A program made the position numbers and the translations under genes. Shown piece by piece: positions 44,898 to 62,712 of a stretch of DNA of 64,000 bases. The DNA is taken from contig CAVTQK010000017.1 of NCBI GenBank assembly GCA_963736855.1, positions 1 through 64,000 of the forward strand. The letters run 5' to 3'. The notes under the pieces were generated by a model. The model searched no databases, was not told the DNA's origin, and saw only the letters and a program-made list of their open reading frames with translations. This DNA is from an uncultured delta proteobacterium. GTDB lineage: Bacteria; Desulfobacterota; Desulfobacteria; Desulfobacterales; UBA2156. Within the stretch, counting starts at the first letter, position 1; each line of letters opens with the position of its first letter.

Positions 44898-47336
44898 ATG
44901 GTGACATTACCTAAAATTTTCCAAAGTGATCGGCAACCGGAACCCGTCCGGATGCTTCCCCTTCTCCCTTTGAGGGATATCGTTGTGTTCCCCAGTATGG
45001 TTGCCCCGCTTTTTGTAGGCCGGGACAAATCGGTCAATGCCTTGGCCGAGGCCATGAACAGCGATAAAAGCCTCTTTCTGGCCACTCAGAAGAGGGCCAA
45101 CATCGACAACCCCACCGAAAGAGACCTCAACACCATCGGATCTGTGGGCACGGTCCTTCAGCTCCTCCGGCTTCCGGACGGCACAGTGAAGGCTCTGGTG
45201 GAAGGAAAGAGCCGGGCACGAATCATCCGGTTCGTTGCCAATGAAGGCTTTTTCAAGGTGGAATACGAATTGATCCCGGACGCAGGCCTCTCGGATTTTG
45301 AAGGAGAGGCATTACGACGGGCCATTGTCCAGAGTTTCGATGAGTATGCCAAGCTCAACAAAAATATCTCCAAAGAGATGATCCAGAACGTCTCCACCAT
45401 TGCCAGCCTTTCCCAGCTTGCCGATATGGTGGCAGCGCAATTCGCATTCAAGCTGGAAGACAAGCAGAAACTCCTGGAGGCCGAAGATTTGGAACAGCGG
45501 TTGACGCTGCTGCTGCGATTCGTCCGGACCGAGATCGACATCTTTAAGATGGATCAGCGGATCAAGGGCCGGATCAAGGAGCAGATGGAGAAAGTTCAAA
45601 AGAACTTCTATCTCAACGAGCAGATGCGGGCCATCAAAAAGGAGATGGGGGCGGAAGAGGACCCAAGCGAAGAGCTTGCCGAGCTGGAAAAGCGGATCAA
45701 GCGCAAACGCATGTCCAGAGAAGCATCGGGAAAGGTTCGTCAGGAGTTCAAGAAACTCAGGATGATGACGCCCATGTCCGCTGAGGCAACGGTGGTCCGG
45801 GGTTACATCGAGTGGCTCATCGGTCTCCCCTGGTTCGATAAAACCGCTGTTCGTCATGACATCAAGGAAGCGGAGAAGATCCTCAACGAAGACCACTACG
45901 GTCTTGAAAAACCCAAGGAGCGGATCTTGGAATACCTTGCCGTCCAATCCCTGGTCAAAAAAATCAAGGGGCCGATATTGTGTTTCGTGGGACCGCCGGG
46001 CGTCGGTAAGACCTCTTTGGCCAAATCCATCTCCAGGGCTACGGGAAGGAAATTCGTGAGGCTTTCCTTGGGCGGTGTCCGGGACGAGGCCGAGATTCGG
46101 GGCCATCGCCGCACTTACATCGGCGCCATGCCGGGAAAGATTATCCAGTCGATCAGGAAAATCGGCGTGAACAACCCCGTCTTCTGTCTGGATGAAGTGG
46201 ACAAGATGAGCATGGATTTTCGCGGGGATCCGTCGGCAGCACTTTTGGAAGTCCTGGATCCGGAGCAGAACTTCAGCTTCAACGATCACTATCTGGATGT
46301 GGACTATGATCTTACGGACATCCTCTTTATCACCACGGCCAACACGCTCCCGGATATCCCCCTGCCGCTCCAGGACCGGATGGAGATCATAAGGCTTCCC
46401 GGATACACCGAGTACGAAAAACTGCACATCGCCATGGGGTTTTTAATCCCCAAACAGGTTGTGGCTAACGGGTTGGAAGGCAGGAAAATCAGTTTTTCCA
46501 AACAGGCCATCTCAATGATCATCAACCGGTATACCCGGGAAGCCGGTGTCCGGAACTTGGAAAGGGAAATTGCCTCCATCTGCCGAAAGATCGCCCGGGA
46601 GGTCATGCAGAACAAAAAGAAAGAGAACATCCACGTTTCGGCCAGTTCAGTACAGAAATACCTGGGACCCCCGAGGTTCAGGGACAGCCAGATCGAACCG
46701 GAAGATCAGGTCGGTATGGTGACCGGCCTGGCGTGGACCCAGGTGGGCGGTGAACTGTTGTGTGTGGAGACATTGACCATGCCGGGAAAAGGGGAGCTCA
46801 TCATCACCGGGAAACTGGGAGATGTGATGAAGGAATCCGCCCAGGCCGCCGTAAGCTATGTGCGATCCCGGGCCGAATGCCTCTTGATCGATCCCAAGTT
46901 TTATAGAAAGCTGGATCTTCACATCCACATTCCGGAAGGAGCGATCCCTAAGGACGGTCCTTCGGCAGGGATTGCCATGTGCACCTCCATCGTTTCCGCA
47001 CTCACCCGCCGGCCTATCCGCAGGGATGTGGCCATGACCGGCGAGATTACCCTTCGCGGACGGATTCTGCCCATCGGCGGGCTGAAGGAAAAGATCCTGG
47101 CCGCCCATCGGGGAGGCATTAAAAAGGTCATCATCCCCAAGGAAAATGAAAAGGACTTGAGGGATATCCCCAAGACCATTTCCAAGCAGATCGACATCGT
47201 CATGGCGGAGCACATGGATGAAGTGCTGCCCCAGGCGATGATCCTGAGAGTGGGAGAGTCTTGTTTCAGAGAAAACGACATCTCCTTCCAGATGGCGCCG
47301 GAGGAAAAAACAGAAGGACGGCCATCTTTAATTTAA
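44898..47336 (+). CDS. lon: Endopeptidase La
   Basis: [29 protein letters not shown] and PKDGPSAG. Confidence 0.98.
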
Positions 47337-47357: not shown

Positions 47358-47386
47358 TTGACAAAAGGCCGTTGCGCTGTTACTAA
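47358..47386 (+). promoter_or_regulatory. Putative sigma70 promoter of the tRNA-Val/Asp cluster
   Basis: TTGACA-17 bp-TACTAA, 12 bp before tRNA-Val. Confidence 0.7.
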
Positions 47387-47398
47387 TCAGCGGCTTTA

Positions 47399-47473
47399 GG
47401 GCGGGTAGCTCAGCGGGAGAGCATCGGCCTTACAAGCCGGGGGTCACAGGTTCAAACCCTGTTCCGCCTACCA
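47399..47473 (+). tRNA. tRNA-Val(TAC)
   Basis: GGGCGGGTAGCTCAG..TCGGC-CTTACAA-GCCGG..GGTTCAAACC..CCA. Confidence 0.95.
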
Positions 47474-47517
47474 AAAAAATAAATGAGCCGCTTTATGGCT
47501 CACCCAATCGCTTCGCC

Positions 47518-47590
47518 GGGGCGTAGTTCAGTTTGGTTAGAACGTCCCGCCTAAATGGCGGGAAAGTCGATTGGCCGAGCCCATCGGTCA
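47518..47590 (+). pseudogene. tRNA-Asp-derived pseudo-tRNA A (anticodon arm replaced by a palindrome)
   Basis: 27 nt identical to the tRNA-Asp 5' part (GGGGCGTAGTTCAGTTTGGTTAGAACG), then TCCCGCC-TAAAT-GGCGGGA, then AAGTCGA and a degenerate T arm. Confidence 0.8.
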
Positions 47591-47619
47591 TTGACTTGTT
47601 CTTTGTTTGTTTTCATCGC

Positions 47620-47697
47620 GGGGGCGTAGTTCAGTTTGGTTAGAACGCCGGCCTGTCACGCCGGAAGTCGAGGGTTCGAACCCCTTCGTCCCCGCCA
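47620..47697 (+). tRNA. tRNA-Asp(GTC)
   Basis: Complete cloverleaf with CCGGC-CTGTCAC-GCCGG, GTTCGAA and CCA. Confidence 0.96.
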
Positions 47698-47974
47698 GTA
47701 AAATCAAGGACTTAGAGAGTTTATCTAAGTCCTTTTTTATTTCATTAAAACAAACTGATTATTCGAAAGTATTATATCATCATGATGCCAAGCGATGTCC
47801 GCGCATGGATATGCAAAGCGAACTCAATAAATTATTCGAAAACCGGCTTCCTGATCCCAATCTAAAATCTTCTATAAAAATTATGAAAAGATTGACGTTA
47901 ACTGATAGATAGGCTACTGTTATTAGTACCCAAAATTGAGGCGGCATTAAGAATCCACATATAGGAAAAGGGGA

Positions 47975-48214
47975 ATGTCCCCGGTTGCTTTAAGGTCTGG
48001 ACCCTATAGGTTTTACTTTGTCAGTCATGATCTGCACGAACCACCGCATGTCCATATTGACCGAGATGCTTTTTCAGCCAAATTCTGGCTCAATCCTGTG
48101 GCTCTGGCGTATAATCTTGGATTTCCTGCAAAAGAACTGAGGAAGGTCGAAGCGATCACCGTTGAAAATCAAAAAGAGTTATTGGAGAAATGGAATGAAT
48201 ACTTTGGAACCTAA
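47975..48214 (+). CDS. DUF4160 family protein (putative toxin-antitoxin component)
   Basis: GPYRFYFVSHDLHEPPHVHI...AKFWL...WNEYFG. Confidence 0.85.
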   Translation: MSPVALRSGPYRFYFVSHDLHEPPHVHIDRDAFSAKFWLNPVALAYNLGFPAKELRKVEAITVENQKELLEKWNEYFGT

Positions 48215-48467
48215 GGCAGGAGAACGAATAAAGAATGTTTCTTTCACAGATGATACTATCATTGTAGATCTTTTCGACGGACGAACTATAACGGTTCCCC
48301 TGACATGGTATCCCCGTCTGCTCCATGCAACGCCGGAACAGCTCAAGAATTGGAAAATAGCTGGAGCGGGATACGGAATACATTGGCCGGAGATTGATGA
48401 AGATCTCAGCACCCAAGGTCTTTTACAGGGTGCTCCAGCTCCCCGCACGGCTTCGAAAGCTGCATAA
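48195..48467 (+). CDS. DUF2442 family protein (partner of DUF4160)
   Basis: LFDGRTITVPLTWYPRLLHATPEQ and GYGIHWPEIDEDLS. Overlaps the upstream gene. Confidence 0.88.
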   Translation: MNTLEPKAGERIKNVSFTDDTIIVDLFDGRTITVPLTWYPRLLHATPEQLKNWKIAGAGYGIHWPEIDEDLSTQGLLQGAPAPRTASKAA

Positions 48468-48703
48468 ATTTTATAAAGTACTTGCCTAATGCCACCTATC
48501 TCAATTCGGCATCTCTAACCATCATTCCGGCATTAAAACTGATATAGTTCATCACTGCGTAAAAAACTGCGTGAATTTTGATAGACGAATTCGAGCAAAT
48601 TCTCATTTCTATTTACGAATTCACTCAAATTCTCACGCAGTAACAGTTTGATATCTTTATAATATATTGAATTCATTGAAAATAAAAAATCGGGACATGG
48701 AAT

Positions 48704-48748
48704 CTGTCACGCCGGAAGTCGAGGGTTCGAACCCCTTCGTCCCCGCCA
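48704..48748 (+). repeat. 45-bp perfect direct repeat of the tRNA-Asp 3' half (att site)
   Basis: CTGTCACGCCGGAAGTCGAGGGTTCGAACCCCTTCGTCCCCGCCA is identical to 47653-47697. Confidence 0.95.
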
Positions 48749-48798
48749 CTGTTTTCATGGCCTGCCATCTGTAAAGATGTGCCAGGCCTTTTTTCTTT

Positions 48799-49052
48799 AT
48801 GGCATACTGCGTTTACATAATCCAAAGCCAGGTTGATGGAGGTTTCTATGTCGGCTCAACCCGTGACATTGATGACCGGCTTGAGCGTCACAACACAGGG
48901 AGGAGTCGTTACACCAGGGGAAGCGTGCATGGAAATTGGTTTATAAGGAAGACTGTCCGGATCGATCGAGTGCAATAAAACGTGAGTTAGAGATCAAAAA
49001 CAAAAAGAAACGAACGGTTATCGAAGCGCTGATTAGAACGTCCCGCCCCTAA
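48799..49052 (+). CDS. Small GIY-YIG nuclease (one-base frameshift near 48917-48921), absent from the ORF track
   Basis: Manual translation gives MAYCVYIIQSQVDGGFYVGSTRDIDDRLERHNTGRSRYTRG / KRAWKLVYKEDCPDRSSAIKRELEIKNKKKRTVIEALIRTSRP*. It has the VY...YVG, RL..H and A..RE..IK signatures. Confidence 0.88.
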
Positions 49053-49092
49053 GGCGGGAAGGTCGCGAGTTCGAACCCCTTCGTCCCCGCCA
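49033..49092 (+). pseudogene. tRNA-Asp-derived pseudo-tRNA B, overlapping the GIY-YIG 3' end
   Basis: TTAGAACG-TCCCGCC-CCTAA-GGCGGGA-AGGTCGCGA-GTTCGAACCCCTTCGTCCCCGCCA. The last 24 nt are identical to the tRNA-Asp 3' end. Confidence 0.85.
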
Positions 49093-49529
49093 AGTAAATT
49101 CAAGGGGTTACGGCAATCAACCGTAGCCCTTTCTTATTTGTTCCCAGCAGTATTCCCAGCAAGCAACCCGAATTTTAGCCTTTTTGACATTTCAGGCCCA
49201 GTATCGACATCACCCGGATTGAGAACCCAACAGATCAGGACTTTGCCCGGAAAGAGAAATATTCAAGAGCAATGAAATTATTTATATTGAGACTTTACTG
49301 CGAATTCCGCATTCAGCCGCATAAAAGGGGATAGATGGAAAGGTTGAACTGCATTTTCCATATTAACTTGTCTGTTATGAGCATATATGTAATATTTGAC
49401 ATGCTATAAGGACGATATCGAGTAATTTATTCCAGATATTGATAATGTTCGGCAAACATGCTTGTTTCGTATTGTTGGGTTTCAGTATAATGGAAGCAAG
49501 ATGAATGAACCAACATAGGAGAGGTCAAC

Positions 49530-49752
49530 ATGGCAATGACCGCACAAGAAATCTTCACAGAAACCGTACGAAACCTGCCACCCAGAGAACGGCTTCGTCT
49601 GGCAGCACTCATTTTACAGGATCTGGCACAATCAGATGTCGGCGGTTGTGAACCGAAGTGACACTTGGAGCGAACAAGACCAGAGAGATCTGACTGCCGT
49701 TTCATTGAAGTATGCGGCTGGTCTCTACCCAGAGGAGCAGGAACTTGTTTAA
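49530..49752 (+). pseudogene. Putative antitoxin (frameshifted)
   Basis: GAGG RBS, then MAMTAQEIFTETVRNLPPRERLRLAALILQDL / ...DTWSEQDQRDLTAVSLKYAAGLYPEEQELV*. It overlaps the start of the PemK-like gene. Confidence 0.6.
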
Positions 49753-50108
49753 TCCGGGAGATGTGGTGGCGATTGACTTTCCTGGTGTGACTGGCGTCAA
49801 ACGCCGGCCTGCTGTTGTAGTCTCCTCCGCAGTCTATCATGCCTCACGCCCCGATGTGGTTGTCTGCCTCATTACAAGCCAAACCATTCCATGTGGTCCT
49901 GACGGATTACATATTGCAGGATTGGGGTAAGGCAGGTTTACGAGTCCCATCGGTCTTTCGGTGTTTTTTCGCTACGCTCCCTCCCGCTACCCATCCTGTG
50001 CTCGTCGGCCATTTGTCAGACCGAGACTGGCGTGGAGTATGTGAGTGCATAAAGATCGCCCTGGCCCCCTTATCTACCTCAGAACGTTCGACAACATCAC
50101 CGTCGTAA
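49745..50108 (+). pseudogene. PemK/MazF-family toxin (frameshifted near 49885-49900)
   Basis: PGDVVAIDFPGVTGVKRRPAVVVS...DVVVCLITS, continuing in another frame as DYILQDWGKAGLRVPSVFR...VGHLSDRDW. Confidence 0.82.
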
Positions 50109-50411
50109 TCGACCATGTTCGCTGAAGTGGGATTGCCGAACGAATAAGGATAGATCGTGAGAGCGAAGCGAACCACGATCTTATCCTGTAGTTGGACAAG
50201 CCCGGCGGAATTCAGGGAGGTATCCTTATAAAGGAAAATATCTTTTGTTGAATGGGAGGTGGTTTTAACCCGAACTGGGAGCAAGACAATTTTCAGGGCA
50301 AGCGAGATCAATAAGCCTATCAGAGGGCTTATTAAACGGTCTTTATGTCATAGAATTTTTCTTAACCTCCTATGCTTATGTTTACTTCAGGTCATTGCCG
50401 ATTTAGACATG

Positions 50412-51466
50412 CTATCCTGGTGAGCGTATCGGCGGGCTGATACCCAGCACCCGCATAGGCGCATGACACAAGGGGCACATAAATACCGGTCTGGGACGTG
50501 AGCAGGCTTGAATCATGACCTGCAAAACCATTTGAACCAGTTTCAGCAGCTTTTTGGCATTGCCATGTAGAAAGCCATAGTCTCTGAGCCGACGAAAGCC
50601 CTTGGGCAAAACATGTTGCAGAACGAGCCAAAGGAAGTCTTCACCTTTGACGGTACGGTAGCGGGTTTTGCCGGTACGGCTTTCGACATATTTAAACGTG
50701 ACATTGCCATTTTGATTGGAGACGATATTGCTTTCACCGATGACGCCTCGGTATAGGTATCGCGATAAGTATTTCAAAGCGGAGAGACCTTTTCCGGCGC
50801 GAGTGCAGTCGACCACCCATTTTCTGGGCACTGAATCGGGCAAAGCGAGACCGGCTTGGTTCAAAGCCGCAAGAAAGCGGGCGCGAAACACCTTGGCCAG
50901 GGCGAATTCATTGAACAGGTACTTGCTTTTTTTCTTTTTCCATTGTTTTTTGGCCTTATCCACGCCGCCGCCCGGCACCACGACATGGATATGCGGGTGA
51001 TAATCCAGGCGACGGTTATGGGTATGCAGTACTGCGGTCATGCCGATATTGGCGCCGAGGTTTTTGGGATTCAGGCCGAAGTCCTTCAGCGTGCTGGAAG
51101 CGCACGCAAAAAGGAGATTATAAGCGAGGGTTTGGTGGTTCCATGCCAGGAATCTGAGCTCATAGGGAAACGTAAAGGTTGCCATGAAGTACTCAACCGG
51201 CAAAAGCTTGGCCTGTTGCCGGTCCAGCCAGAGTGAGGTTTCATGGTTCTGGCATTGTGGGCAGTTGCGATGCCCGCAGGAACGGGGACGCCATTCGGCA
51301 TGGCCGCAGTCAGTGCATTGAACGAGCAACTGGCCGGCGTCGGGTGTTCGGCATCTGTCGGATCGCATCGATGGCGTGCAGATGACCGGGTAAAAGCCGG
51401 GAGCCGTATTTGCTCCCGAAAGGCATCGTGATATTGATCAAGGATAGAGGCAAGTTGCATGATCAT
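50412..51466 (-). CDS. IS91-family (Y2, HUH) transposase, frameshifted near the N-terminus
   Basis: [18 protein letters not shown] zinc region, LHTH...HPHIHV (HUH) and YLSRY (Y2). Confidence 0.92.
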
Positions 51467-52367
51467 ATCCTCCTTAAATCGACGTGGAGGGTATTGATCA
51501 GCCCATTAATGGTATCAAATGCATTCTGTTTGGCGATGTCGGTTAAATGGGCGTAGCGAGCTGTGGTGGTGGGGCTGCTATGTCCGAGAATCGCCTGGAT
51601 ATGACGAAGGCTTAAGCCCTTTTCCAGCAGATGGGTTGCAAAGGCATGCCTCAGGGAGTGGATCGAGACTTTTTTTTAATGCCGCACTGTTCTACCACGG
51701 CTTTCATGGCGGCCTGGGTGCCGCCGCGATCCATATGGGTGGTGGCACTGCGGATGCGCTCGGGGGACCCGACGGCATTGGGGAATAACCAGCAGGGGTT
51801 GCGATGTTTGCGCCATAGAGTACGTAGTGCGTGACAGGTCAGATCCGGCAATGGGACGAAACGATCCTTGTGCCCCTTGCCGCGCCGGATATGAACCAGC
51901 TTGCGCTGACCGTCGATATCGCCCACTTGCAGGGACAGCGTCTCTGCGAGCCGCAAGCCCATGGAATAGGTTGCTATCAGGAAAACCCGGTAGCGAAGCT
52001 TACGTGTCGCACCGATTATTTGTTCAACTTCGGTGACGGTGAGAATGTCGGGCAGCGAACGCACTTTGGGGGCTTTGATGATATTAAGCCACTGCCAATC
52101 GTGTTTTAGGACATGTTTCCAGAAAAACTGCAGACCATTACGATCAATTTTAACGGTGCTCCAGGAGTGAGATTTCACCAGATCGGAAAAATATTGTTCC
52201 CGCTGTTTCAGGGTCAATTTGTCGGGGCAACAATCAAAATATTCACTGATTCGACGCACGGCGCGCGCATAGGCCTCAATGGTCTTTTGACTTTTACCCT
52301 GGAGTTTGAGAGAACGCAGATGACGTTGATAAAGTTCATTAAACCGGTTCGCTTCAGCTTTTTTCAT
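51463..52367 (-). CDS. Tyrosine recombinase coupled to the IS91 transposase; reading frame broken at A8G (51669-51677)
   Basis: YSMGLRLAE and GKGHKDR in the first frame. The -1 frame continues [16 protein letters not shown]...[12 protein letters not shown] to a TGA overlapping the transposase ATG. Confidence 0.9.
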
Positions 52368-52460
52368 GGTATACCTCCCTTTGTTTTAATGATGCCCGAA
52401 ATTGGGCAACACTGGGAGTTATACACGGTTATGAGGTTTTTTCCGCCGCGTAGCGGCTTC

Positions 52461-52564
52461 GTCCAACAAGCCAATGAAGCTGACAAACAACCACGCGGCA
52501 AGTTCGGTGGGATTATGAAAGTTGGTTCAGCGTGGTTGCTTGCAGCTTATCGGCGTCGTTATGT
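52461..52564 (+). other. Integron-type attC site 1
   Basis: GTCCAAC (RYYYAAC)...GTTATGT with an imperfect inverted repeat: GCCAAT-g-AAGCTG-a-CAAACAACCACGC pairs with GCGTGGTTGCTTG-CAGCTT-ATCGGC, leaving two unpaired bases. Confidence 0.85.
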
Positions 52565-52601
52565 GGTTTCTCCCATGGCACTGAACAAGGGAGAGTAGTA
52601 G

Positions 52602-53156
52602 ATGATGGAATGGTTAGCTAAGAACTGGTTGCCCATTCTGGCATTGCTCGTCGCCTTTGTGGGAGGGTGGCCTGGTATTTTGAAGATTGCCGAACATTTC
52701 CGACCTATCTCCCTGACCGGCTCCATTAAATTTTTTGCTCTTACTACGAGCGCCGACCCCCCCGAAGAAGGTATCCTTCTGGCACTTACGCTTCTCAACG
52801 AAGGCAATAAGAACCTTGTATGGAGAAAAATTGAGGGAACATTAGAGGCTGGAGGGAAAAAGGTTGCTCTCATCCCAAAGATGATTCCCAAAAGTCTATT
52901 ACTAAACGGAGACATATCACCCCAACCAGATTTTTTGAATCAGCAGACAATTCCGCCAGGAACTCCGGTTAATGCCTACCTTCTCCTGACTGGTAACCTT
53001 GGTTCTTTTAGTGCTCTCAATCCGATTGCGAGTGGCAACTTGGGTCTTCGATTCCAAACAGAATCAGGGAGGGACGCAGATGTAAAACTCTCGATTCAGA
53101 CGCATGCTCTCCAAAAAGGTGAGACCTACCCATCACACGGAATCGAATTCAAATAG
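52602..53156 (+). CDS. Hypothetical cassette protein with N-terminal membrane anchor
   Basis: 184-aa ORF with RBS lying between two attC sites. No family recognised. Confidence 0.75.
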   Translation: MMEWLAKNWLPILALLVAFVGGWPGILKIAEHFRPISLTGSIKFFALTTSADPPEEGILLALTLLNEGNKNLVWRKIEGTLEAGGKKVALIPKMIPKSLLLNGDISPQPDFLNQQTIPPGTPVNAYLLLTGNLGSFSALNPIASGNLGLRFQTESGRDADVKLSIQTHALQKGETYPSHGIEFK

Positions 53157-53189
53157 GTAGACAAATGCAAATCATATGGGTCGGCTTCC

Positions 53190-53266
53190 ACATAACCATC
53201 GCATCAACTCGGACTGGCAATCACGGCTACGCTTCATTGCCTGCCGGTTATGCGTAATCGATGGCA
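53190..53266 (+). other. Integron-type attC site 2 (degenerate right core)
   Basis: ACATAAC is the exact complement of GTTATGT at the cassette start. Arms CGCAT-c-AAC-t-CGG-a-C-t-GGCAAT and ATTGCC-t-G-CCG-GTT-ATGCG pair. The right core reads GATGGCA instead of GTTRRRY. Confidence 0.8.
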
Positions 53267-53291
53267 AACGAAAATCACTCAGGGATAACGC

Positions 53292-54846
53292 ATGAATCAT
53301 AACGGAAACAACATTGAATCCCGCCTGTGGGCGGCGGCGGATGAGCTGCGGGCCAATTCCAAGCTGAAGTCGTCGGAATACTCGGTCCCGGTGCTGGGGC
53401 TGGTGTTTCTGCGTTATGCCGACCACAAGTTCCAGGCCGCGGCAAAGGAACTGGTGGGCGCAGGCGGCGGCCGGCGCAAAATCGGCCCGGCGGATTATCA
53501 GGCCAAAGGCGTGCTCTACCTGCCCGACAGCGGCCCGTTTTTCGGCACTGATCCAGATGCCCGAGGGGGCCAACATCGGCGCGGCCATCAATGACGCCAT
53601 GCGGGCCATCGAGGCGGACAACCCCGATCTCAAGGACGTGCTGCCCAAGACCTACAACCGTTTTGAGAACGCCCTGCTCAAGGAATTGCTCAAGACCATG
53701 AATTCCGTGCCCATGGACATCGAGGGGGACGCCTTCGGCAAGATTTATGAATATTTCCTGGGCAACTTCGCACGCGCCGAAGGCCAGAAGGGCGGCGAGT
53801 TTTTCACACCCACCGCCATCGTTCAGCTCATCGTCGGCATCATCGAACCGTTTCATGGCCGCATCTTCGACCCGGCCTGCGGCTCCGGCGGCATGTTTGT
53901 GCAGAGCGCCCGGTTTGTGACCGAACACCAGAAGAACCCCGGCGCCGAGTTGAGCGTTTACGGTCAGGAGAAGGTGGCTGAAACCGTGCGCCTCGGCAAG
54001 ATGAACCTGGCCGTGCATGGCCTTGCAGGCGACATCCGCCAGGGCAACGCCTACTACGAAGACCTGCACCGCTCCGTGGGCAAGTTTGATTTTGTCATGG
54101 CCAATCCGCCCTTTAACGTGGACCGGGTGGACAAGGACCGACTCAAGGAAGACCCGCGCTTCCCCTTTGGCCTGCCCCGCACGGACAACGCCAACTACCT
54201 CTGGATTCAGATTTTTTACAGCGCCCTTTCCGACACCGGCCGATCCGGGTTTGTCATGGCCAATTCTGCTTCCGACGCGCGCGGTTCGGAACTGGACATC
54301 CGCCGGCAGCTTATCGAAGCCCGGGCCGTGGATGTGATGGTGGCGGTCGGGTCCAACTTTTTCTACACGGTAACACTGCCCTGCACCCTGTGGTTTTTCG
54401 ACCGGGGCAAGCGCAAGACCAAACGCGCCGACCAGGTGCTTTTCATTGACGCCCGTCATCTTTACCGCCAGATCGACCGCGCCCACCGGGACTGGACCCC
54501 GGCCCAGATCGAGTTTCTGGCCAACATCGCCCGGCTCTACCGGGGCGAGGCGCCGGAGAACCTGCACGAGAGCGCCGACCTGCTGGCCGAACATTTCGGC
54601 AAAAAGCCCAAGTACGCCGACGTGGCCGGCCTGTGCAAGGTGGCGACCATCTCCGAGATCGAAGCCCAGGGCTGGAGCCTCAACCCCGGCCGCTATGTGG
54701 GCGTGGCCGCCCGCGAAGAGGAGGACTTTGACTTCAAGGAACGGCTGGAGGAGCAGAACGAGGAACTGGAAACCCTCAATGCCGAGGCCCGGGAACTGGA
54801 AGCGCGGATTGCCGAGAATGTGGTCAAGTTGTTGGAGGGGGAGTGA
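53292..54846 (+). CDS. hsdM: Type I restriction-modification methyltransferase subunit (one frameshift near 53530)
   Basis: [29 protein letters not shown] and SLNPGRYV. Confidence 0.93.
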
Positions 54847-55593
54847 TGACAAACGAAAAGCGTAATCTGAAGAAAACAAAACCTGTACCATGCGTGGCTG
54901 TCGCCTCCGCTGCTGGATGACCTGCGCCGGATGATCGAGGAAACCCGGCAAGGTGTTGCCGTTATGGTCAACGCCGGATTGACCATACTTTACTGGCGCG
55001 TCGGCAAACGAATCAACGAGGAAATTCTCAAAGGCGAGCGGGCTGACTATGGCAAAGAGATTCTTGCGACAGTGTCGCAAGAATTGGTAAACGATTATGG
55101 AAAGGGCTTCAGCTACTCAGCTTTAACCAGAATGCTCAAATTCAGTGAGGTTTTTCCGGACCCTCAAATTGTTGCGACACTGTCGCAAACATTGAGCTGG
55201 TCGCATTTCTGTGAACTTTTTCCGCTGGAAAAGCCGCTCCAGCGTGATTTCTATGCCGAAATGTGCCGTATCGAACGGTGGAGCGTCCGCACCCTGCGGC
55301 AGAAGATCGGCTCCATGCTCTACGAGCGCACCGCTCTGTCGAAAAAGCCGGAAGAATTGGCGCGAATCGAACTGTTGGAATTGGGCAAATCCGGCATCCA
55401 TGTAGCCGAATACCTCACCGCCCTGCCGCCCCGCGAGCTGCTTGCCGAAAAGCTGCGACGGTCGATAGAGTTGGCGCGGGCAAGCTTGGAAGGCCGGGAG
55501 AAGAACGATAATGAGAAGATTGGCAAACGCCTGGGAGCTCCGCACTGGGTTGCGGCGGCTTCAGGAAAAGCGGATTCGCGGAGAATGTGGTGA
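54846..55593 (+). pseudogene. DUF1016 (YhcG-like) protein, frameshifted and internally deleted
   Basis: YWRVGKRI, YGKGFS, LSWSHF and WSVRTLRQKI.SMLYER are joined directly to the C-terminal GIHVAEYLT.LP. The central nuclease region appears to be missing. Confidence 0.8.
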
Positions 55594-55609
55594 AGTTGTT
55601 GGAGGGGGA

Positions 55610-56878
55610 ATGATATCGAATCGCGGAAATTAGAAACATGCTATTCGGGGAAGACAGCAATTACTTTTGGAATCAGAGCAATTCGGCAGCACTATAGTCA
55701 GAGAATACCGATAATGGCCCAGTGCACGAGATTGTTCATACGGCTCGACGGTAGATCAAATCGGTTGTCGTGCAATGCTGAATCTCAATTGCCCGAGTGC
55801 CCGTGTATTGTAATTGGCCGCAACGGTACAGTCTATAGGCAAGTCTTTGTTCAGGGCAGACGGCAGACGACTAATTGGTCACACAGATACGACTACAGTG
55901 TTGTTGGTGGAAAAGTACCTCCAGGCGATTTATCCCGTGTTTTCGTACCTATTATTTGCTCTTCAAACTATGGAGCTTGTGAACCAATTTCTCATGGCGC
56001 GGGCCACAAACTCCCACATTGAAATCAAGACATCATATAAACTATCTACGATTCGATCCCTCCCCCCTCCCCACCCAGCGCAAAATCGCCGCCATTCTCT
56101 CGGCCTACGACGACCTGATCGAGAACAACCTGCGGCGGATCAGGATTCTGGAGGAGATGGCGCAGAACCTCTACCGCGAGTGGTTTGTCAAGTTCCGCTT
56201 CCCCGGCCACCAAAACGCCCGCTTTGTCGATTCGCCCCTGGGCCGGATTCCGGAGGGGTGGGAGGTGGACACTGTTGCGAAAGCATTTGATATTTTGGGC
56301 GGTGGAACACCACTCAAAAGCCATTCCCGAATATTGGGATGAAGGAACTATCAACTGGTATTCGCCAACCGATCTCACCGCAACGGGCATCTATGTTCAT
56401 GGAACGTTCCAGCAATCAAATCAGTGAACTGGGTCTGAAAAAGAGTTCGGCACGCTTATTCCCACCGTTTTCCGTGATGATGACCAGCCGGGCTACGCTC
56501 GGCGTGATTTCAATCAATACTACCGAGGCATGTACCAATCAGGGCTTTATAACCTGTATTCCGAACGAGCGTTTTCCGCTTTATACGCTCTACTACTGGC
56601 TCAAGGAGAATATAGAGTATTTTATAAGCCTTGGTACAGGTGCTACTTTCAAGGAGATCACCAAAGGCATATTCAAAACCATCGAACTTGTCGTTCCTGC
56701 ACAGGGTATAGTTACTCTGTTTGAGGATACCATGAAGCAATTTGCCCTTCAGGTATTGAACCTGCAAAGAAAAAACACCACCCTCCGCCGCACCCGCGAC
56801 CTTCTACTTCCCAGACTCATCTCCGGCGAGAAGGATGTGTCGGAACTGGACATCGCCGTTGCCGAGGAGGCAGCATGA
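55610..56878 (+). pseudogene. hsdS: Type I restriction-modification specificity subunit, multiply frameshifted
   Basis: Conserved segments [44 protein letters not shown] and RDLLLPRLISGE lie in different frames. The first TRD has no continuous ORF. Confidence 0.85.
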
Positions 56879-57842
56879 AAGCCACTGATCTCGATATCCT
56901 GCTCCAGGAGGGCGAGGGCGTCATGCTGGAATATAAGGAAGGCCTTTCCGCTTCCTTTGCCCGCGAACCCCGGCGCTTCTTCAATCAGGCCTATGTCACC
57001 TGCCTGCTCTTCAAGGGAACCAGCAAGGTGCATGTGCTGGATCGAAAGGACTTTGCCGGAGGCATTGTCGCCGATATCGAGGACAGCCTGCGTTTCATCG
57101 AACGTAACACCCGCACCGCCTATCGAATCGAGAAACTTCAGCGCGAGGATATTCCGGAATATCCCATGTCGGCGCTGCGCGAGGCCATCACCAATGCCGT
57201 TATGCACCGCGACTGGTTCATCGAGGGCGCCAACGTGTTCGTTGAAATTTTCTCGGACCGCATCGAGGTTTCCAGTCCCGGCGGCCTGCCGAAGGGGATG
57301 CTGCTGAAAGACCTGGGCCATAAGAGCATCCGTCGCAACGCCCTGATCGCCGACCTGCTGCACCGCATCGCCTTTATCGAAAAGGCCGGCACGGGCATTC
57401 TGCGCATGCGCGACGGCGCCAGGGCGGAGGGGTATCCGGAACCCGAGTTTTCCGAGACCGGTTTTTTCAGCGTGGTGTTCCGGCCGATTCCCGCGGTAAG
57501 CGAACAGGATACCCAGCAAGTCGGGACCAAGTCGGGACCAAGTCGGGACCATGATGGGCCCATGATGAGGCCCATGATGAGGCCCATGATCCGCTGGGTG
57601 CTGTCAAATATCGAATTTTGACAAAATGTGCCGATGAACCACAAAGCACGCCCGATCTGTTGCACACACTGGGTTACAAAACACGCACCGGCGGTTTTAA
57701 AGTGGCGATAACCGATCTTTTAATTTCAGGCTTTCTGGAAATGACTATTCCGGATAAGCCAAGAAGCAAAAAACAACGCTACCGCACCACCGCGGCCGGG
57801 CGCCGTGTTCTCGAAAACGTCGATAAGGATTCAGCATCATGA
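56875..57842 (+). pseudogene. AlbA/Schlafen-type N-terminus, HATPase-like (RecG C-terminal-like) domain and wHTH, internally deleted and split
   Basis: EGEGVMLEYKE, ALREAITNAVMHRD, DRIEVSSPGGL, RNALIA and EKAGTG. The tail LEMTIPDKPRSKKQRY is in ORF 57618..57842. Confidence 0.75.
57517..57590 (+). repeat. Short tandem repeats (11-12 bp units)
   Basis: CAAGTCGGGAC x3, then CATGATG(A)GGCC x3 plus a partial unit. Confidence 0.92.
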
Positions 57843-60800
57843 CCCCTTCCGGATACACCGAAGACGCCCTGGTCGAACAACCGGCCATCGCCCTGCTGGC
57901 GGAGCTGGGCTGGGAGACTTTTAATGCCTATCATGAGTTCGATCACGGCCCGAGTTCTCTTGGGCGGGAAACCAAGGATGAAGTCATCCTCGTTGCCCGG
58001 TTGCGTCCGGTCTTGCGTCGTCTCAATCCGGATGCGCCGCCTGAAGCCATTGAACAAGCCATCGAGGAGCTGACCCGCGACCGCTCGCGCATGAGCCTGG
58101 CTGCTGCCAATCGCGAAACCTACCATCTGCTCAAAAACGGCATTCGCGTCCATGTGCCTGATGCCGAAGGCATCGGTGAAACAATCGAGGTGGTTCGGGT
58201 GATGGATTGGGACAATCCGGCCAACAATGACTTTCTGCTCTGCTCTCAGTTCTGGGTCTCGGGCGAGATGCACACCCGCCGTGCCGATCTGGTGGGCTTT
58301 GTCAACGGCCTGCCGCTGCTGTTTGTGGAACTCAAGGCCGCCCATCGCCGCCTGGAGACAGCCTTCACCGGCAACCTGCGCGACTACAAGGACACCATCC
58401 CCCAATTGTTCTGGCCCAACGCGCTGATCATTCTTTCCAACGGCAGCCGGAGCCGGGTGGGCAGCGTCACCGCCGGCTGGGAACACCTGGCCGAATGGAA
58501 AAAGGTGGACAAAGAGGATGAGCCGGGCCGGGTGTCGCTCTCGACGATGCTGCGCGGCGTCTGCGAACCGGCGCATTTTATGGACCTGGTGGAGAACTTC
58601 ACCCTGTTTCAGGAAGCCCCTGGTGGATTGATCAAGCTGACGGCCAAGAACCACCAGTATCACGGCGTAAACAACGCAATCAAGGCGTTGTCCGACATCC
58701 GGAAGCGGGAGGGCAAGCTGGGCGTATTCTGGCACACCCAGGGCAGCGGCAAGAGCGTCTCGATGATTTTCTTTGCCCAGAAGGTGTTGCGCAAGCTGCC
58801 GGGCAACTGGACCTTTGTGGTGGTGACCGATCGGCAGGAACTGGACGGGCAGATTTACAAGAACTTTGTCTCGGCGGGGGTGGTGACCGAAGGCCGCGCC
58901 CAGGCGGAGAGCAGCCGGCACCTGCGGCAGTTGCTCACCGAGGATCACCGCTATGTCTTTACCCTGATCCACAAATTCCGCTTGCCGGAGGAGGTCTCCA
59001 CACGCAACGACATCATCGTCATCACCGACGAGGCGCACCGCAGCCAGTATGACACCCTGGCGCTGAACATGCGCACGGCACTGCCCAACGCGGCATTTCT
59101 GGCATTTACCGGCACCCCGCTGATTATCGGCGAGGAGAAGACCCGGCAGGTTTTCGGCGATTACATCAGCGTCTATGACTTTCAGCAGTCGGTGGATGAC
59201 GGCGCCACCGTGCGCCTTTACTACGAGAACCGCATTCCTGAGCTGCAACTGGTCAACGAGAACCTCAACGAGGACATGGAACGACTGCTGGAAGCGGCGG
59301 AACTGGACGAAACCCAGGAGAAGAAACTGGAACGGGAGTTTGCCCGGGAATACCACCTCATCACCCGCGACGAGCGGCTGGAGGCGATTGCAAAGGACCT
59401 GGTGGCGCATTTCACGGGGCGGGGCTTCCAGGGCAAGGCGATGATGATCTGCATCGACAAAGCCACGGCCATCCGCATGTATGACAAGGTAAGGAAGCAT
59501 TGGGGCGATAAGATTGCAGCGTTAGAGGCGGAAGGCATCCGTGCTGACGGCGATGCCCGCCGGGAGATTGAAGAGCGGCTTGCCCGGATGAAAGAAACCG
59601 ACATGGCGGTCGTGGTTTCGCAGGGCCAGAACGAGATCGCCGAGATGGCCGACAAAGGTCTGGACATTCGGCCGCACCGCAAGCGCATGGTCGAGGAGGA
59701 CCTGGACACCAAGTTCAAGAACCCGGACGATCCTTTCCGGCTGGTGTTTGTCTGCGCCATGTGGATGACCGGCTTTGACGTGCCGAGCTGTTCAACGCTT
59801 TACCTCGACAAACCCATGCGCAATCACACGCTGATGCAGACCATCGCCCGGGCCAATCGTGTCTATCCGGGCAAGGTGAGCGGCTTGATTGTGGACTATG
59901 CCGGGGTGTTCCGTAACCTGGAGCGGGCGCTGGCCATCTATGGCGTCGGCGGAAGCGGGGGTCAGAAACCGGTGGAGGACAAAGCCGCGCTGGTGGCGGC
60001 GCTGCGGCAGGCGTTGGCAGATACCCGGAGCTTGTGCCGGGAACACGGTGTGGATCTTGCTGCCATTCAGTCCGCCGAGGGGTTTTCCCGTATCGGCATG
60101 CTCGATGACGCCGTTGATTCGCTGGTGGGTTCCGACGAGCCCAAGCGTCGCTATCTCGATCTGGCCAACACGGTCCAGCGGTTTTACAAGGCGGTTCTGC
60201 CCGATCCTGCGGCCCGGACATTCGCCGCCGAGGTTACGCCTGTGCAGATCATTGCCGACAAAATCCGTGCCCTGACGCCGCCGACGGACATCTCACAGGT
60301 CATGGGGCAGGTGGAAGACCTGCTCGACCGCTCCATCGCCACAGAAGGCTACATCATCCGCGAGGCAAGCGCGCCCTACGGTGACGAGCATTGGATTGAC
60401 CTAAGCAACATTGACTTCGAGAAACTGGCCGAGAAGTTCAAGGCGGGCCGCAAACGGACGACCAACGAAAAGCTCAAGGGAACCGTGGCGCAGAAGCTCA
60501 TGGTTATGGTGCGGCTCAACCGCACCCGCATGGATTATCTGGAAAAGTTTCAGGCGATGATCGACGCCTACAACGCGGGCAGCCTGAACGCCGAAGAGTT
60601 TTTCCAGCAACTGGTTGATTTCGCCCGGAGCCTGAACGCGGAAGAGCAGCGGGCAGTGGGCGAGCAGTTGAGTGAAGAAGAACTGGCGCTCTTTGATCTC
60701 TTGACAAAGCCGCAGATTGAAATGAGCGACGCGGACCGTAAAAAGGTCAAGGCTGTTGCCCGTGAGCTGCTGTCCACGCTTAAAGAGGGCAAGCTGGTGC

Positions 60801-60985
60801 TGGATTGGCGCAAGCGGCAGCAAGCCCGCGCCGAGGTGAGGGTGACCATTGAGAAACTGCTCGACAAGGGCCTGCCAAGAGCCTATACGCCGGAACTGTT
60901 CCAGCAGAAAGCCACCGCCGTGTTCCAGCATGTCTATGACGCCTATTATGGCGCCGGGCGAAGCATCTATGCGGCTGTGGCATAA
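57839..60985 (+). CDS. hsdR: Type I restriction endonuclease subunit R
   Basis: RADLVGFVNGLPLLFVELK nuclease motif, HTQGSGKS, DEAHRSQY, FTGTP, TGFDVP and QTIARANR. Confidence 0.96.
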   Translation: MTPSGYTEDALVEQPAIALLAELGWETFNAYHEFDHGPSSLGRETKDEVILVARLRPVLRRLNPDAPPEAIEQAIEELTRDRSRMSLAAANRETYHLLKNGIRVHVPDAEGIGETIEVVRVMDWDNPANNDFLLCSQFWVSGEMHTRRADLVGFVNGLPLLFVELKAAHRRLETAFTGNLRDYKDTIPQLFWPNALIILSNGSRSRVGSVTAGWEHLAEWKKVDKEDEPGRVSLSTMLRGVCEPAHFMDLVENFTLFQEAPGGLIKLTAKNHQYHGVNNAIKALSDIRKREGKLGVFWHTQGSGKSVSMIFFAQKVLRKLPGNWTFVVVTDRQELDGQIYKNFVSAGVVTEGRAQAESSRHLRQLLTEDHRYVFTLIHKFRLPEEVSTRNDIIVITDEAHRSQYDTLALNMRTALPNAAFLAFTGTPLIIGEEKTRQVFGDYISVYDFQQSVDDGATVRLYYENRIPELQLVNENLNEDMERLLEAAELDETQEKKLEREFAREYHLITRDERLEAIAKDLVAHFTGRGFQGKAMMICIDKATAIRMYDKVRKHWGDKIAALEAEGIRADGDARREIEERLARMKETDMAVVVSQGQNEIAEMADKGLDIRPHRKRMVEEDLDTKFKNPDDPFRLVFVCAMWMTGFDVPSCSTLYLDKPMRNHTLMQTIARANRVYPGKVSGLIVDYAGVFRNLERALAIYGVGGSGGQKPVEDKAALVAALRQALADTRSLCREHGVDLAAIQSAEGFSRIGMLDDAVDSLVGSDEPKRRYLDLANTVQRFYKAVLPDPAARTFAAEVTPVQIIADKIRALTPPTDISQVMGQVEDLLDRSIATEGYIIREASAPYGDEHWIDLSNIDFEKLAEKFKAGRKRTTNEKLKGTVAQKLMVMVRLNRTRMDYLEKFQAMIDAYNAGSLNAEEFFQQLVDFARSLNAEEQRAVGEQLSEEELALFDLLTKPQIEMSDADRKKVKAVARELLSTLKEGKLVLDWRKRQQARAEVRVTIEKLLDKGLPRAYTPELFQQKATAVFQHVYDAYYGAGRSIYAAVA

Positions 60986-61034
60986 AAAAGCCATCAAACA
61001 AGGTGCTGCACTGATCGACCCGGGGATTAACTTA

Positions 61035-62429
61035 TCAGCTTTTCTCCTGCGCCATAAGTTGTGATTCAATGACACGCATTCGTTTCCATTGTCCTTGGCG
61101 GTAACGCAGCATGAAAGCCATGCCGAGGGCACATACATAAACCGTGGCGATCGTCCATGCCGCATAAATCCCTGCTCCCACAACCTCTACCGCAACATAA
61201 ATCGGTATGATCATTACTCCGAGGCATAGCGCCGAAATCGTCCACATGATAAAGCGCGTGTCGCCGGCTCCTTTGATAGCGCTTGAGAAGATGAGGTTGA
61301 GCGCGTCGAAGAAGGAAAACGCGGCGACAAAACGCAGGAGAATGACCCCAAGGGCCATAATCTCGGCATAGTGGTTATGGGTGTGCTGATCGTTTCTGAA
61401 CAGGCGGAGGAGCGGTTCGGGCGTAAGGACGAACACCCCGGCCAGAAACATCATGTAAATGAGCGTGATGTGAATGGCGCTGGTAGTGGCGTAAGCGCCC
61501 TCTTCCGGCCGACCGCGGCCGATAGCCTGCCCCATCAGAGTCGCATTCCCGATGTGAAAGCCCACCATGGGAAGAAAGGATAGGGACTCAATGGAAAGAA
61601 CGATGTTGGAGGCCGCTAACTCCAGGTCCCCGAGCCGGCCCAGCATCTGAATAAAAAACGTGAATCCGAAAATCTCCAGGAAGAACTGGATACCGCTGGG
61701 CATGCCGTACCGCATCATCCGGCCGAAGAGTTCTCTGTCCAGGGCCCTGGCGCTCCATGTGGCGAATCGGGTCCGGTTCCCCTTGCGGAAAATGAGAATC
61801 ACAAGAACAACCGTGGTCGTGGCTGAAGCGATAACGGTAGCGAGGCCTGCCCCGAAAATGCCCAGTTCCGGAAACGGCCACACCCCGTTGATCAAACAGT
61901 AATCCAGTGGGATATTGACTGCCGCACCGATCACGTTGACGATCATAACGGTCCAGGTCAGACCCCGGCCTGTGTAAAAGCAGGCCATGACCGAATTCAG
62001 AACCACGATGCCCGCGCCCAGTGTGAGGATATTGAAGTAGGCCACCTCAAGAGACCGGATACGGGGCGAATGGCCGATCAGCTCAAATATCCTGTCGGAC
62101 ACAAAAACCATCAAGGCAAGGAGGACTGCGGCTGCCAGGGAGAAATAAATTCCCTGCCACAGGGAGGCGCCAACTCGGCTAAAAGCGCGGGCCCCTGTAT
62201 ACTGGGCGACGAAGACGTTCGTGTAATTGGCAACGCCCATGAAAAAGGAGATGAACGTGAAGGAGGCGATACCGGCCGGCAGTGCAGCGGCTATGGCATC
62301 CACAGAATAGTTTGCCAAAAACACCCTGTCCGTGAACTGCATGACCGTGAAGGATCCCATGGAAGCGACCAGCGGCAGGCTGATCGCCAGCACCTCACGG
62401 TACCCATTGAGTTTTGACCATCGCTCCAT
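61035..62429 (-). CDS. MATE family efflux transporter
   Basis: TDRVFL, AQYTGA, NIPLDY.LI.G, PELGI.GAGLAT and KGAGDTRF. Start set to the ATG at 62429. Confidence 0.92.
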   Translation of the reverse strand: MERWSKLNGYREVLAISLPLVASMGSFTVMQFTDRVFLANYSVDAIAAALPAGIASFTFISFFMGVANYTNVFVAQYTGARAFSRVGASLWQGIYFSLAAAVLLALMVFVSDRIFELIGHSPRIRSLEVAYFNILTLGAGIVVLNSVMACFYTGRGLTWTVMIVNVIGAAVNIPLDYCLINGVWPFPELGIFGAGLATVIASATTTVVLVILIFRKGNRTRFATWSARALDRELFGRMMRYGMPSGIQFFLEIFGFTFFIQMLGRLGDLELAASNIVLSIESLSFLPMVGFHIGNATLMGQAIGRGRPEEGAYATTSAIHITLIYMMFLAGVFVLTPEPLLRLFRNDQHTHNHYAEIMALGVILLRFVAAFSFFDALNLIFSSAIKGAGDTRFIMWTISALCLGVMIIPIYVAVEVVGAGIYAAWTIATVYVCALGMAFMLRYRQGQWKRMRVIESQLMAQEKS

Positions 62430-62712
62430 CACAGTTTGCCCCCTCAACGCTCCGCACGATGCCCGGCAACATACATTGTTTCCGCCAACAAAATACAGTT
62501 TTTTCTGTTGGGGAATCGATGTCATTGGCGGTTTTTTTAAGGATTCCTTCCTTCATTGTCAAACCATGGCATTGAATTTATTACGGCTACCGTGTCACTC
62601 CACTATGCGTTATACGATAACCTGTAGGATGTGAAGGTTTGGACGAACTGCTGCAGCTAGGGGAAAGATGAAGTCAATCACTGAAAACGAGAGGGGTCGG
62701 ACTTTGCCATCG

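Follow-up and report, generated by a model that had tools for sequence, protein, structure and literature searches.

The first 64,000 nucleotides of contig CAVTQK010000017.1 (assembly GCA_963736855.1, from an uncultured delta proteobacterium of the Desulfobacterota; this whole stretch is referred to here as the window) contain a small gene for a GIY-YIG nuclease that ends inside a partial copy of a tRNA-Asp gene, in which the anticodon arm has been replaced by a short hairpin. The locus is probably best explained as a selfish cassette, made up of an Ssn-type nuclease and its hairpin, that is lodged in the tRNA-Asp gene and that always keeps one intact tRNA-Asp. The anatomy of the locus, the recurrence of the cassette at tRNA genes across phyla, the conservation and covariation of the hairpin, the purifying selection on the nuclease gene and its patchy presence within the genus are established. 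A first-pass annotation of this DNA had already proposed a tRNA-targeted selfish unit, and its recurrence in many phyla, patchiness and paralogs at different tRNA genes now agree with that proposal, whilst the cleavage, repair and spread that it invoked are steps that we infer.

Two altered copies of tRNA-Asp lie on the + strand on either side of the intact tRNA-Asp(GTC) gene (47620-47697, + strand; ARAGORN, Rfam 68.8 bits), which is the sole tRNA-Asp gene that ARAGORN detects in the assembly. Copy A (47518-47569) is a 5' pseudo-half and copy B (49033-49092; DNA fold z-score -3.06) is a 3' pseudo-part, both delimited by sequence, blastn and alignment. Positions 47518-47544 of copy A are exactly the first 27 bases of tRNA-Asp, covering the acceptor 5' strand and the D arm, and are followed by hairpin A (TCCCGCC-TAAAT-GGCGGGA, 47545-47563; found by palindrome scan and DNA fold, no strand assigned), by AAGTCG and then by divergence and decay. 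Copy B starts with TTAGAACG, the 3' side of the D arm of tRNA-Asp, and continues with hairpin B (TCCCGCC-CCTAA-GGCGGGA, 49041-49059, again without strand), AGGTCG, the T arm, the acceptor 3' strand and CCA. In a four-piece alignment the 19-nt hairpin takes the place of the 17-nt anticodon arm in both copies between flanks, GAACG and A(A/G)GTCG, that are retained. The description given at first pass, of two tRNA-Asp derivatives with a palindrome for an anticodon arm, one holding the 5' half and the other the T arm, acceptor strand and CCA, is therefore correct, with the addition that the T stem of copy B is a mismatched hybrid (GCGAG, as in other lineages, versus the CCCTT of its own genome). 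This hybrid, a single case, is compatible with a recombination joint inside the T loop. Whilst both derivatives are real, a third piece had been overlooked, an unaltered 45-nt 3' piece of tRNA-Asp at 48704-48748 (+ strand; blastn 45/45) that runs from the anticodon loop to CCA.

Neither altered copy is called as a tRNA by ARAGORN, which finds only the Val and Asp genes there, or by the Rfam tRNA model at E<=10; copy A is without a 3' acceptor strand and copy B without a 5' acceptor strand. The TAA that had been pointed out in the loop of hairpin A is present in the assembly but is not conserved, as is apparent from four public sequencing runs from different studies (X1-X4), the contigs of which were compared with positions 47380-49200: in X1 and X2 positions 47552 and 47553 are both G, with the stem kept. 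When palindromes of the form CCCGCC-N3-8-GGCGGG were counted across the genome, a check that the first-pass annotation had suggested, 16 were found in 3.9 Mb and only hairpins A and B had a tRNA-derived context. As two of just 16 palindromes lie in tRNA-derived sequence, and both at this locus, the pattern goes beyond chance. A hairpin repeat family dispersed throughout the genome was also considered and is not supported by these 16 palindromes or by the 45 TCCCG hairpins found genome-wide (5-12 in mononucleotide shuffles), those near tRNA-Pro and tRNA-Arg resembling ordinary terminators.

The nuclease gene (48799-49052, + strand, 84 codons; Pfam and open reading frames) encodes a single GIY-YIG domain and overlaps copy B by its last six codons and its stop, with the TAA at 49050-49052 sitting in the loop of hairpin B. 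That a gene of about 84 amino acids ends in copy B, with its stop inside the hairpin, had been read from the letters alone and is confirmed by Pfam PF01541, which matches 48799-48927 with E 1.1e-9 (38.8 bits, cut-off 22.6) and 48927-49049 with E 1.1e-3 (19.7 bits), the two pieces being in different frames; a whole-genome scan gave 37.3 bits, and a search of the nuclease against NCBIfam gave sub-threshold matches only. The assembly copy has a 1-base frameshift near 48916-48927 and an A instead of the otherwise invariant P44. Runs X1, X2 and X4 have one extra base at 48916 or 48919 together with a G>C change at 48927, and, read with these changes, the gene runs uninterrupted through 84 codons to that same TAA within the loop of hairpin B. 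The broken frame is peculiar to this assembly, being either real recent decay or an error.

In six relatives with an intact gene the proteins are 84-85 amino acids long, consist of the catalytic domain only and share invariant Y6, Y17, R27, H31, N32 and E63 in alignment, of which the window copy retains Y6 and Y17. A profile of these six proteins matches PDB 1zg2 (UPF0213) at 3.5e-15 and also SLX1 chains. It is apparent that the gene is under constraint, as the ratio of nonsynonymous to synonymous substitution (dN/dS) is 0.07-0.45 in nine informative pairs; 11 pairs were computed, with L025/L026 saturated and L079/L071 unaligned at 28% nucleotide identity, and thus uninformative. No promoter-like site belonging to the gene itself is visible in the window, and the gene starts directly after a hairpin with a T tract that lies just before the ATG (48759-48794, + strand; DNA fold z-score -4.43), which suggests that the nuclease may be expressed at a low level by read-through from the tRNA promoter. 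The sequence of this hairpin, AGGCCTG.CA...TG.CAGGCCTTTTT, is conserved among the cassette-bearing Desulfobacterota and precedes the gene in L002-L007.

The arrangement is not confined to this genome. When 61 genomes of the order were searched at the DNA level, the gene part of the query matched relatives from several families, and six loci from four families of the order have the same arrangement with an intact gene. These loci are made up, in order, of tRNA-Val, between zero and two hairpin-bearing 5' pseudo-halves, tRNA-Asp, the conserved T-tract hairpin and the GIY-YIG gene, with a hairpin-bearing 3' pseudo-part after the gene in four of the six, and the cassette between the tRNA copies is only ~350 bp. 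In two loci (L006 in genome G029 and L010 in G039) a copy of tRNA-Val, upstream of tRNA-Val itself, also has the same hairpin in place of its anticodon arm, which suggests a former or second cassette at tRNA-Val.

The profile of the six intact proteins retrieved 80 loci, which span Desulfobacterota, Nitrospirota, Acidobacteriota, Bacteroidota, Ignavibacteriota, Zixibacteria, Patescibacteria and others. Full flanks, that is at least 300 nt upstream and at least 150 nt downstream, are available for 63 of them, and 48 of these 63 have an intact tRNA gene on the same strand no more than 300 nt upstream or 200 nt downstream of the gene (only upstream in 38, only downstream in eight and on both sides in two). 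From the 46 tRNA genes that ARAGORN finds in the 3.9 Mb of the present assembly, adjacency by chance would be expected in less than 1%. If a CCCG hairpin is accepted as well as a tRNA, 61 of the 63 loci have one or the other. The recurrence of a GIY-YIG gene with pseudo-tRNA pieces in other genomes, the absence of which had been named as grounds for abandoning the first interpretation, is thus found.

The adjoining tRNA is mainly tRNA-Asp, with Ser(GGA), Glu, Lys, Ala and Val also represented, and two arrangements occur, either tRNA, gene and 3' pseudo-part, as here, or 5' pseudo-half, gene and tRNA. In some lineages it is the T arm or the D arm of the pseudo-copy, not the anticodon arm, for which the hairpin substitutes. 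Within three Bacteroidota genomes nine of the 16 homologues lie beside tRNA genes, for Ala, Asp (three), Leu, Arg, Gly and Val, and these tRNA-linked copies are nine of the ten best-scoring homologues. At five loci (L015, L016, L045, L069 and L075) the whole unit is in tandem, with a second GIY-YIG frame directly behind the first. A further five (L014, L050, L066, L070 and L084) come from genomes titled Asgard archaeon, Eubacteriales or Gammaproteobacteria, and the loci are Desulfobacterota-like or in genomes of 1.2 Mb; the odd titles probably reflect faulty binning or labelling and not transfer, the "Gammaproteobacteria" of 1.2 Mb probably being mislabelled bacteria of the candidate phyla radiation.

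The hairpin recurs along with the gene. TCCCG...CGGGA hairpins number 113 in 60.6 kb of gene-proximal sequence and 13 in 159.9 kb of distal flank, a 23-fold enrichment, and 63 of the 80 loci have at least one close to the gene. The outer five pairs are invariant, whilst the first inner pair varies (AT 41, CG 38, TA 27 and GC 2) and is complementary in 108 of the 113. The hairpin is, then, conserved in both sequence and structure, a pattern compatible with a role as DNA or as RNA. That the hairpin is gained or lost independently of the gene is evident from three near-identical Ferruginibacter loci (L056, L058 and L061), the nuclease genes of which are 96-97% identical: in a pseudo-tRNA-Ser ~100 nt after the gene, one locus has an intact T arm and in the other two the hairpin replaces six bases of it.

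The first-pass annotation knew of no named system with this layout, a statement that holds only in part, as the pairing of nuclease and hairpin matches the Ssn nucleases and NTS hairpins of Neisseria (PMC11893778), whereas the embedding in tRNA copies was not found described. SsnA of Neisseria meningitidis has 94 amino acids, belongs to CDD family cd10448 and has Y6, Y17 and E64 among its tested residues; according to the published account, single-domain GIY-YIG proteins of cd10448 bind the NTS hairpin solely as single-stranded DNA and cut a few bases upstream of it, SsnA showed no RNA binding, and it limits the integration of NTS-bearing DNA during Neisseria transformation (PMC11893778). The ssn genes are often bracketed by hairpins, the authors likening NTS-ssnA-NTS to an insertion sequence (PMC11893778; Chenal et al., Nat Commun 2025), and their Discussion compares Ssn with IS200/IS605 and REP-associated tyrosine transposases. 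The likeness to the present cassette is considerable: the hairpin core TCCCGC...GCGGGA is identical to that of the Neisseria NTS, the protein is a single GIY-YIG domain (84-85 amino acids here and 94 in SsnA, a range of ~84-94 overall), the invariant Y6, Y17 and E63 stand against Y6, Y17 and E64 of SsnA, and in both the gene lies between hairpins (PMC11893778). The differences are that the hairpins here lie inside partial tRNA copies, where they replace tRNA arms, that there are two per genome and not hundreds as for NTS, and that they are without the conserved NTS flanks (PMC11893778).

Judged by size, residue positions and hairpin core, rather than by an alignment with SsnA, the nuclease probably belongs to Ssn proper. 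Supplementary Data 4 of the Neisseria study lists an ssnA homologue with SRM counts at chance level in Marinifilum flexuosum, Maribellus sediminis and Ekhidna lutea (PMC11893778). Copies lodged in tRNA genes were found in the first two species and in a genome of an Ekhidna sp., an overlap that hints, if indirectly, that the tRNA-lodged genes are members of Ssn. The word "tRNA" is absent from the main text of that study, and among 12 of its 14 supplementary files it occurs in file 9 only, ten times, two of these occurrences being gene descriptions (PMC11893778). Literature on GIY-YIG and tRNA genes, and on Ssn, SsnA or cd10448 since 2024, yielded no published description of the tRNA-lodged layout. 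It looks, therefore, as though the pairing of nuclease and hairpin is already known as Ssn/NTS and its embedding in tRNA gene copies is apparently new. A tblastn search of plasmids for an SsnA-like reference gave five weak matches only, of which one on a Sphingomonas plasmid sits between nrdR and a methyltransferase gene without any hairpin context.

Three other kinds of known element invite comparison. Enzymes of the SegB type are larger, have a separate DNA-binding part and cut the double-stranded DNA of the nuclease-free allele. SegB of phage T4 is alike in that a GIY-YIG nuclease gene lies among tRNA genes and in its presumed gain, the preferential inheritance of the nuclease and its flanks via cleavage and repair (PMC2330249), whereas here a bare catalytic domain of 84 amino acids has a dedicated hairpin and is found in cellular genomes with split tRNA copies. 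Pfam and alignment give this protein no SegB-type DNA-binding domain for a long double-stranded site. The sporadic distribution with empty sites that is typical of homing endonucleases is seen in the genus, where the gene is present in four of six genomes and the sites of G001 and G003 are empty. In IS200/IS605 elements and REP-associated tyrosine transposases a small enzyme gene is accompanied by flanking hairpins that are recognised as single-stranded DNA. The cassette is similar in having a small gene flanked by hairpins, with gene-less copies of the hairpin also existing, but those enzymes have the HUH/Y1 fold and chemistry and not that of GIY-YIG, and the targets here are the arms of tRNA genes, with the excision and insertion at a short target motif known from IS200/IS605 not in evidence. 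Integrative islands at tRNA genes cross over in the anticodon loop and leave behind a duplicated 3' part. Partial tRNA duplicates beside a tRNA gene are common to both, and the fragment at 48704-48748 is of that kind; copies A and B, in contrast, carry a foreign hairpin and are tied to a nuclease gene instead of an integrase, and being altered they are not the exact 3' duplicates, with an integrase inside the element, that mark an attachment site.

How a selfish cassette of this kind might persist can be pictured by analogy with Neisseria SsnA. The nuclease would bind the hairpin, its presumed recognition site, while the heavily transcribed tRNA locus is single-stranded, and would nick a few bases from it. 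Repair or recombination could then proceed through the conserved tRNA halves, which would serve as homology arms, and would maintain, duplicate and occasionally transfer the cassette into cassette-free tRNA genes, with the host surviving by virtue of the one intact tRNA that is retained. The distribution is of the kind that such a process might leave. The gene is present in six of 12 genomes of the family and G001 and G003 (96% and 98% complete) have plain tRNA-Val-tRNA-Asp sites, whilst elsewhere diverged nuclease paralogs occupy different tRNA genes within single genomes. On a weakly resolved tree of 69 of the 80 proteins (the other 11 being excluded because of stops, Ns or a length below 70 amino acids) the nuclease clades track tRNA type, with at least five changes of type. 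The flanks hold two integrases, one serine recombinase and one transposase among 142 open reading frames, and with recombinase-type frames so few it follows that no other recombinase travels with the cassette.

A number of observations weigh against a selfish, mobile cassette. Within the Desulfobacterota it is confined to one syntenic locus, lon-tRNA-Val-tRNA-Asp, and vertical descent with losses explains much of the distribution there. The paralogs are diverged, which weighs against recent mobility, and no intact tRNA lies near the gene in 15 of the 63 loci with full flanks. The pseudo-halves match the tRNA of their own genome, so that duplication or gene conversion in place fits as well as an imported spare tRNA. 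The nucleotides flanking the hairpin differ by tRNA type, whereas those of the NTS are conserved, and the SRM motif published for searches (PMC11893778) has no match on either strand of the window and two matches, in one of the 80 loci, in gene-proximal regions, from which it follows that the hairpins here are NTS-like in their core only. When empty and filled sites of the same genus were compared, the Val-Asp spacers and downstream flanks could not be aligned, and exact insertion boundaries did not emerge. The mechanism itself, that is cleavage, excision and transfer, would be an extension by analogy.

The surroundings of the cassette are themselves rich in insertions. All of its parts share the strand of the tRNA genes, and the series starts on the + strand with lon (44898-47336) and tRNA-Val(TAC) (47399-47473, + strand; ARAGORN, Rfam 66 bits); the order lon, tRNA-Val, tRNA-Asp is conserved, with a Lon_C domain upstream in 18 related loci. 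Between the intact tRNA-Asp and the 45-nt piece lies an islet of ~1 kb (47698-48703, + strand) with a DUF4160/DUF2442 pair and its own terminator (47706-47734), in which a domain scan found no integrase. It is bounded by an exact 45-nt direct repeat (47653-47697 and 48704-48748) and is therefore a later insertion in the anticodon-loop region of the tRNA gene; it is present in runs X1-X4, and in relatives the nuclease gene follows the tRNA directly, without an islet. The cassette in this genome is, then, old and eroding, with an islet inserted into it and its gene frameshifted, whilst the gene of sister strains is intact.

Behind copy B there is a terminator-like hairpin (49102-49132, + strand), and the flank of this terminator region resembles the flank 3' of the intact tRNA-Asp in the cassette-free relative G003, but it may belong to an island. 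Just past the terminator is a direct repeat, TTCCCAGCA-GTA-TTCCCAGCA (49141-49161). A similar motif occurs on contig C15 (~252360-253200) after tRNA-Glu(CTC), together with a 97-nt stretch that is 92% identical to 49284-49380, and similar doubled motifs are found 3' of tRNA-Asp at further Desulfobacterota loci; such sequences may mark the termini of related islands that target tRNA genes for integration. Island-like content continues downstream over 49712-62525, with a MazF/PemK-like frame that is truncated (49712-49927), an IS91-family transposase and a tyrosine integrase side by side on the - strand (50412-51368 and 51651-52367, respectively) and, at 53416-60985, a type I restriction-modification system broken up by DUF1016 and other frames. 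A second small GIY-YIG remnant is found on contig C15 (648386-648571, - strand); it is truncated, has neither N-terminal motif nor start codon, and neither a tRNA nor a TCCCG hairpin is close by.

It might be assumed that such a layout is an artefact of assembly or a chance resemblance, given that the locus is rich in repeats and that the assemblies of relatives are collapsed or masked there (L002 and L003). Contigs of run X1 bridge 47426-47665 and 48719-49200, however, and a contig of X2 bridges 48719-49091, so the layout is not an artefact of this assembly; the strain-level differences from it mean that these contigs are not the same assembly over again. Reads that pointed to an artefact had been named at first pass as grounds for abandoning the interpretation, and as the layout also recurs in many genomes the artefact can practically be dismissed. 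Very doubtful, too, is the proposal that the tRNA pieces are the scars of an integrase, in which they would be left and right attachment-site duplicates (attL/attR), the palindrome an integrase core site and the nuclease passenger cargo. The piece at 48704-48748, which begins in the anticodon loop, is a classic duplicate of attachment-site type, there are island genes and an integrase downstream, and the hybrid T arm of copy B is what a crossover in the T loop would give. Yet recombinases make up only four of the 142 flank frames, the altered arm is no copy of the tRNA, the hairpin goes with the nuclease gene in different phyla and at different tRNAs, and in relatives just ~350 bp separate the tRNA copies. 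Hardly better placed, though a little less improbable, is a device acting at the level of RNA, with the pseudo-tRNA pieces transcribed along with the tRNA operon and processing, stabilising or regulating the nuclease mRNA or the tRNA transcript. All parts lie on the tRNA strand, the gene has no visible promoter and starts just past the T-tract hairpin, its stop codon falls in the hairpin loop or is the TAG of a D loop, and the stem covariation would also suit an RNA hairpin. Neither copy scores as a tRNA, however, and each lacks one acceptor strand; the outer five base pairs are invariant across phyla, which points to sequence-specific recognition by a protein, SsnA is without RNA binding in the published work (PMC11893778), and the placement of the hairpin relative to the gene varies, being upstream or downstream and in the T or D arm. 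The more specific suggestion that the mRNA ends in a tRNA-like structure fares no better, as copy B has no 5' acceptor strand and no score with the tRNA model, and the position of the hairpin changes with lineage.

The most serious rival, although we regard it as unlikely, is that the nuclease and hairpins are a domesticated host system, kept to modulate recombination at the tRNA locus. The nuclease might trim incoming or displaced single strands, as SsnA does, or hinder elements that integrate at tRNA-Asp, in either case with odds no better, and the pseudo-tRNA pieces would then be by-products or, just as doubtfully, decoy attachment sites. Such a role would sit well with the restriction of NTS-bearing DNA integration by SsnA (PMC11893778), with purifying selection on the gene, with the single syntenic locus in Desulfobacterota and with the standing of tRNA-Asp as an integration hot spot, to which the islet, the IS91 element, the integrase and the type I restriction-modification island downstream bear witness. 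Against it, half of the genomes of the family (six of 12) do without the gene, it is broken in this assembly, and islands have entered at the intact tRNA as well as behind copy B, which means that no protection is visible; moreover, paralogs at different tRNA genes in small genomes resemble spread and not a single host function.

A selfish cassette lodged in the tRNA-Asp gene thus remains the preferred explanation, and from it a wider proposal can be drawn, which is put forward tentatively and with rather less than even confidence. The cassettes would be widespread and hitherto undescribed mobile elements of tRNA genes, in which an Ssn-type nuclease has a portable hairpin that is written into anticodon, T or D arms and in which tRNA halves act as universal homology arms, allowing movement between species whilst a working tRNA is left behind. 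If this is true, at least some Ssn nucleases would have selfish propagation at tRNA genes as their natural role, and the exact swap of an arm for a hairpin would represent a new, structure-guided step of DNA rewriting. A whole class of nuclease-hairpin pairs escapes the published search motif, and these natural pairs, in which an invariant TCCCG/CGGGA clamp encloses a variable inner stem, offer themselves for tools that act on single-stranded DNA. Cassettes of this type would also account for many of the odd half-tRNA and pseudo-tRNA fragments that clutter bacterial annotation. tRNA genes would give the Ssn nucleases, as enzymes of single-stranded DNA, a natural context outside Neisseria, and if spread does occur by way of tRNA halves it would be a new way for selfish DNA to occupy essential, conserved genes without the death of the host.

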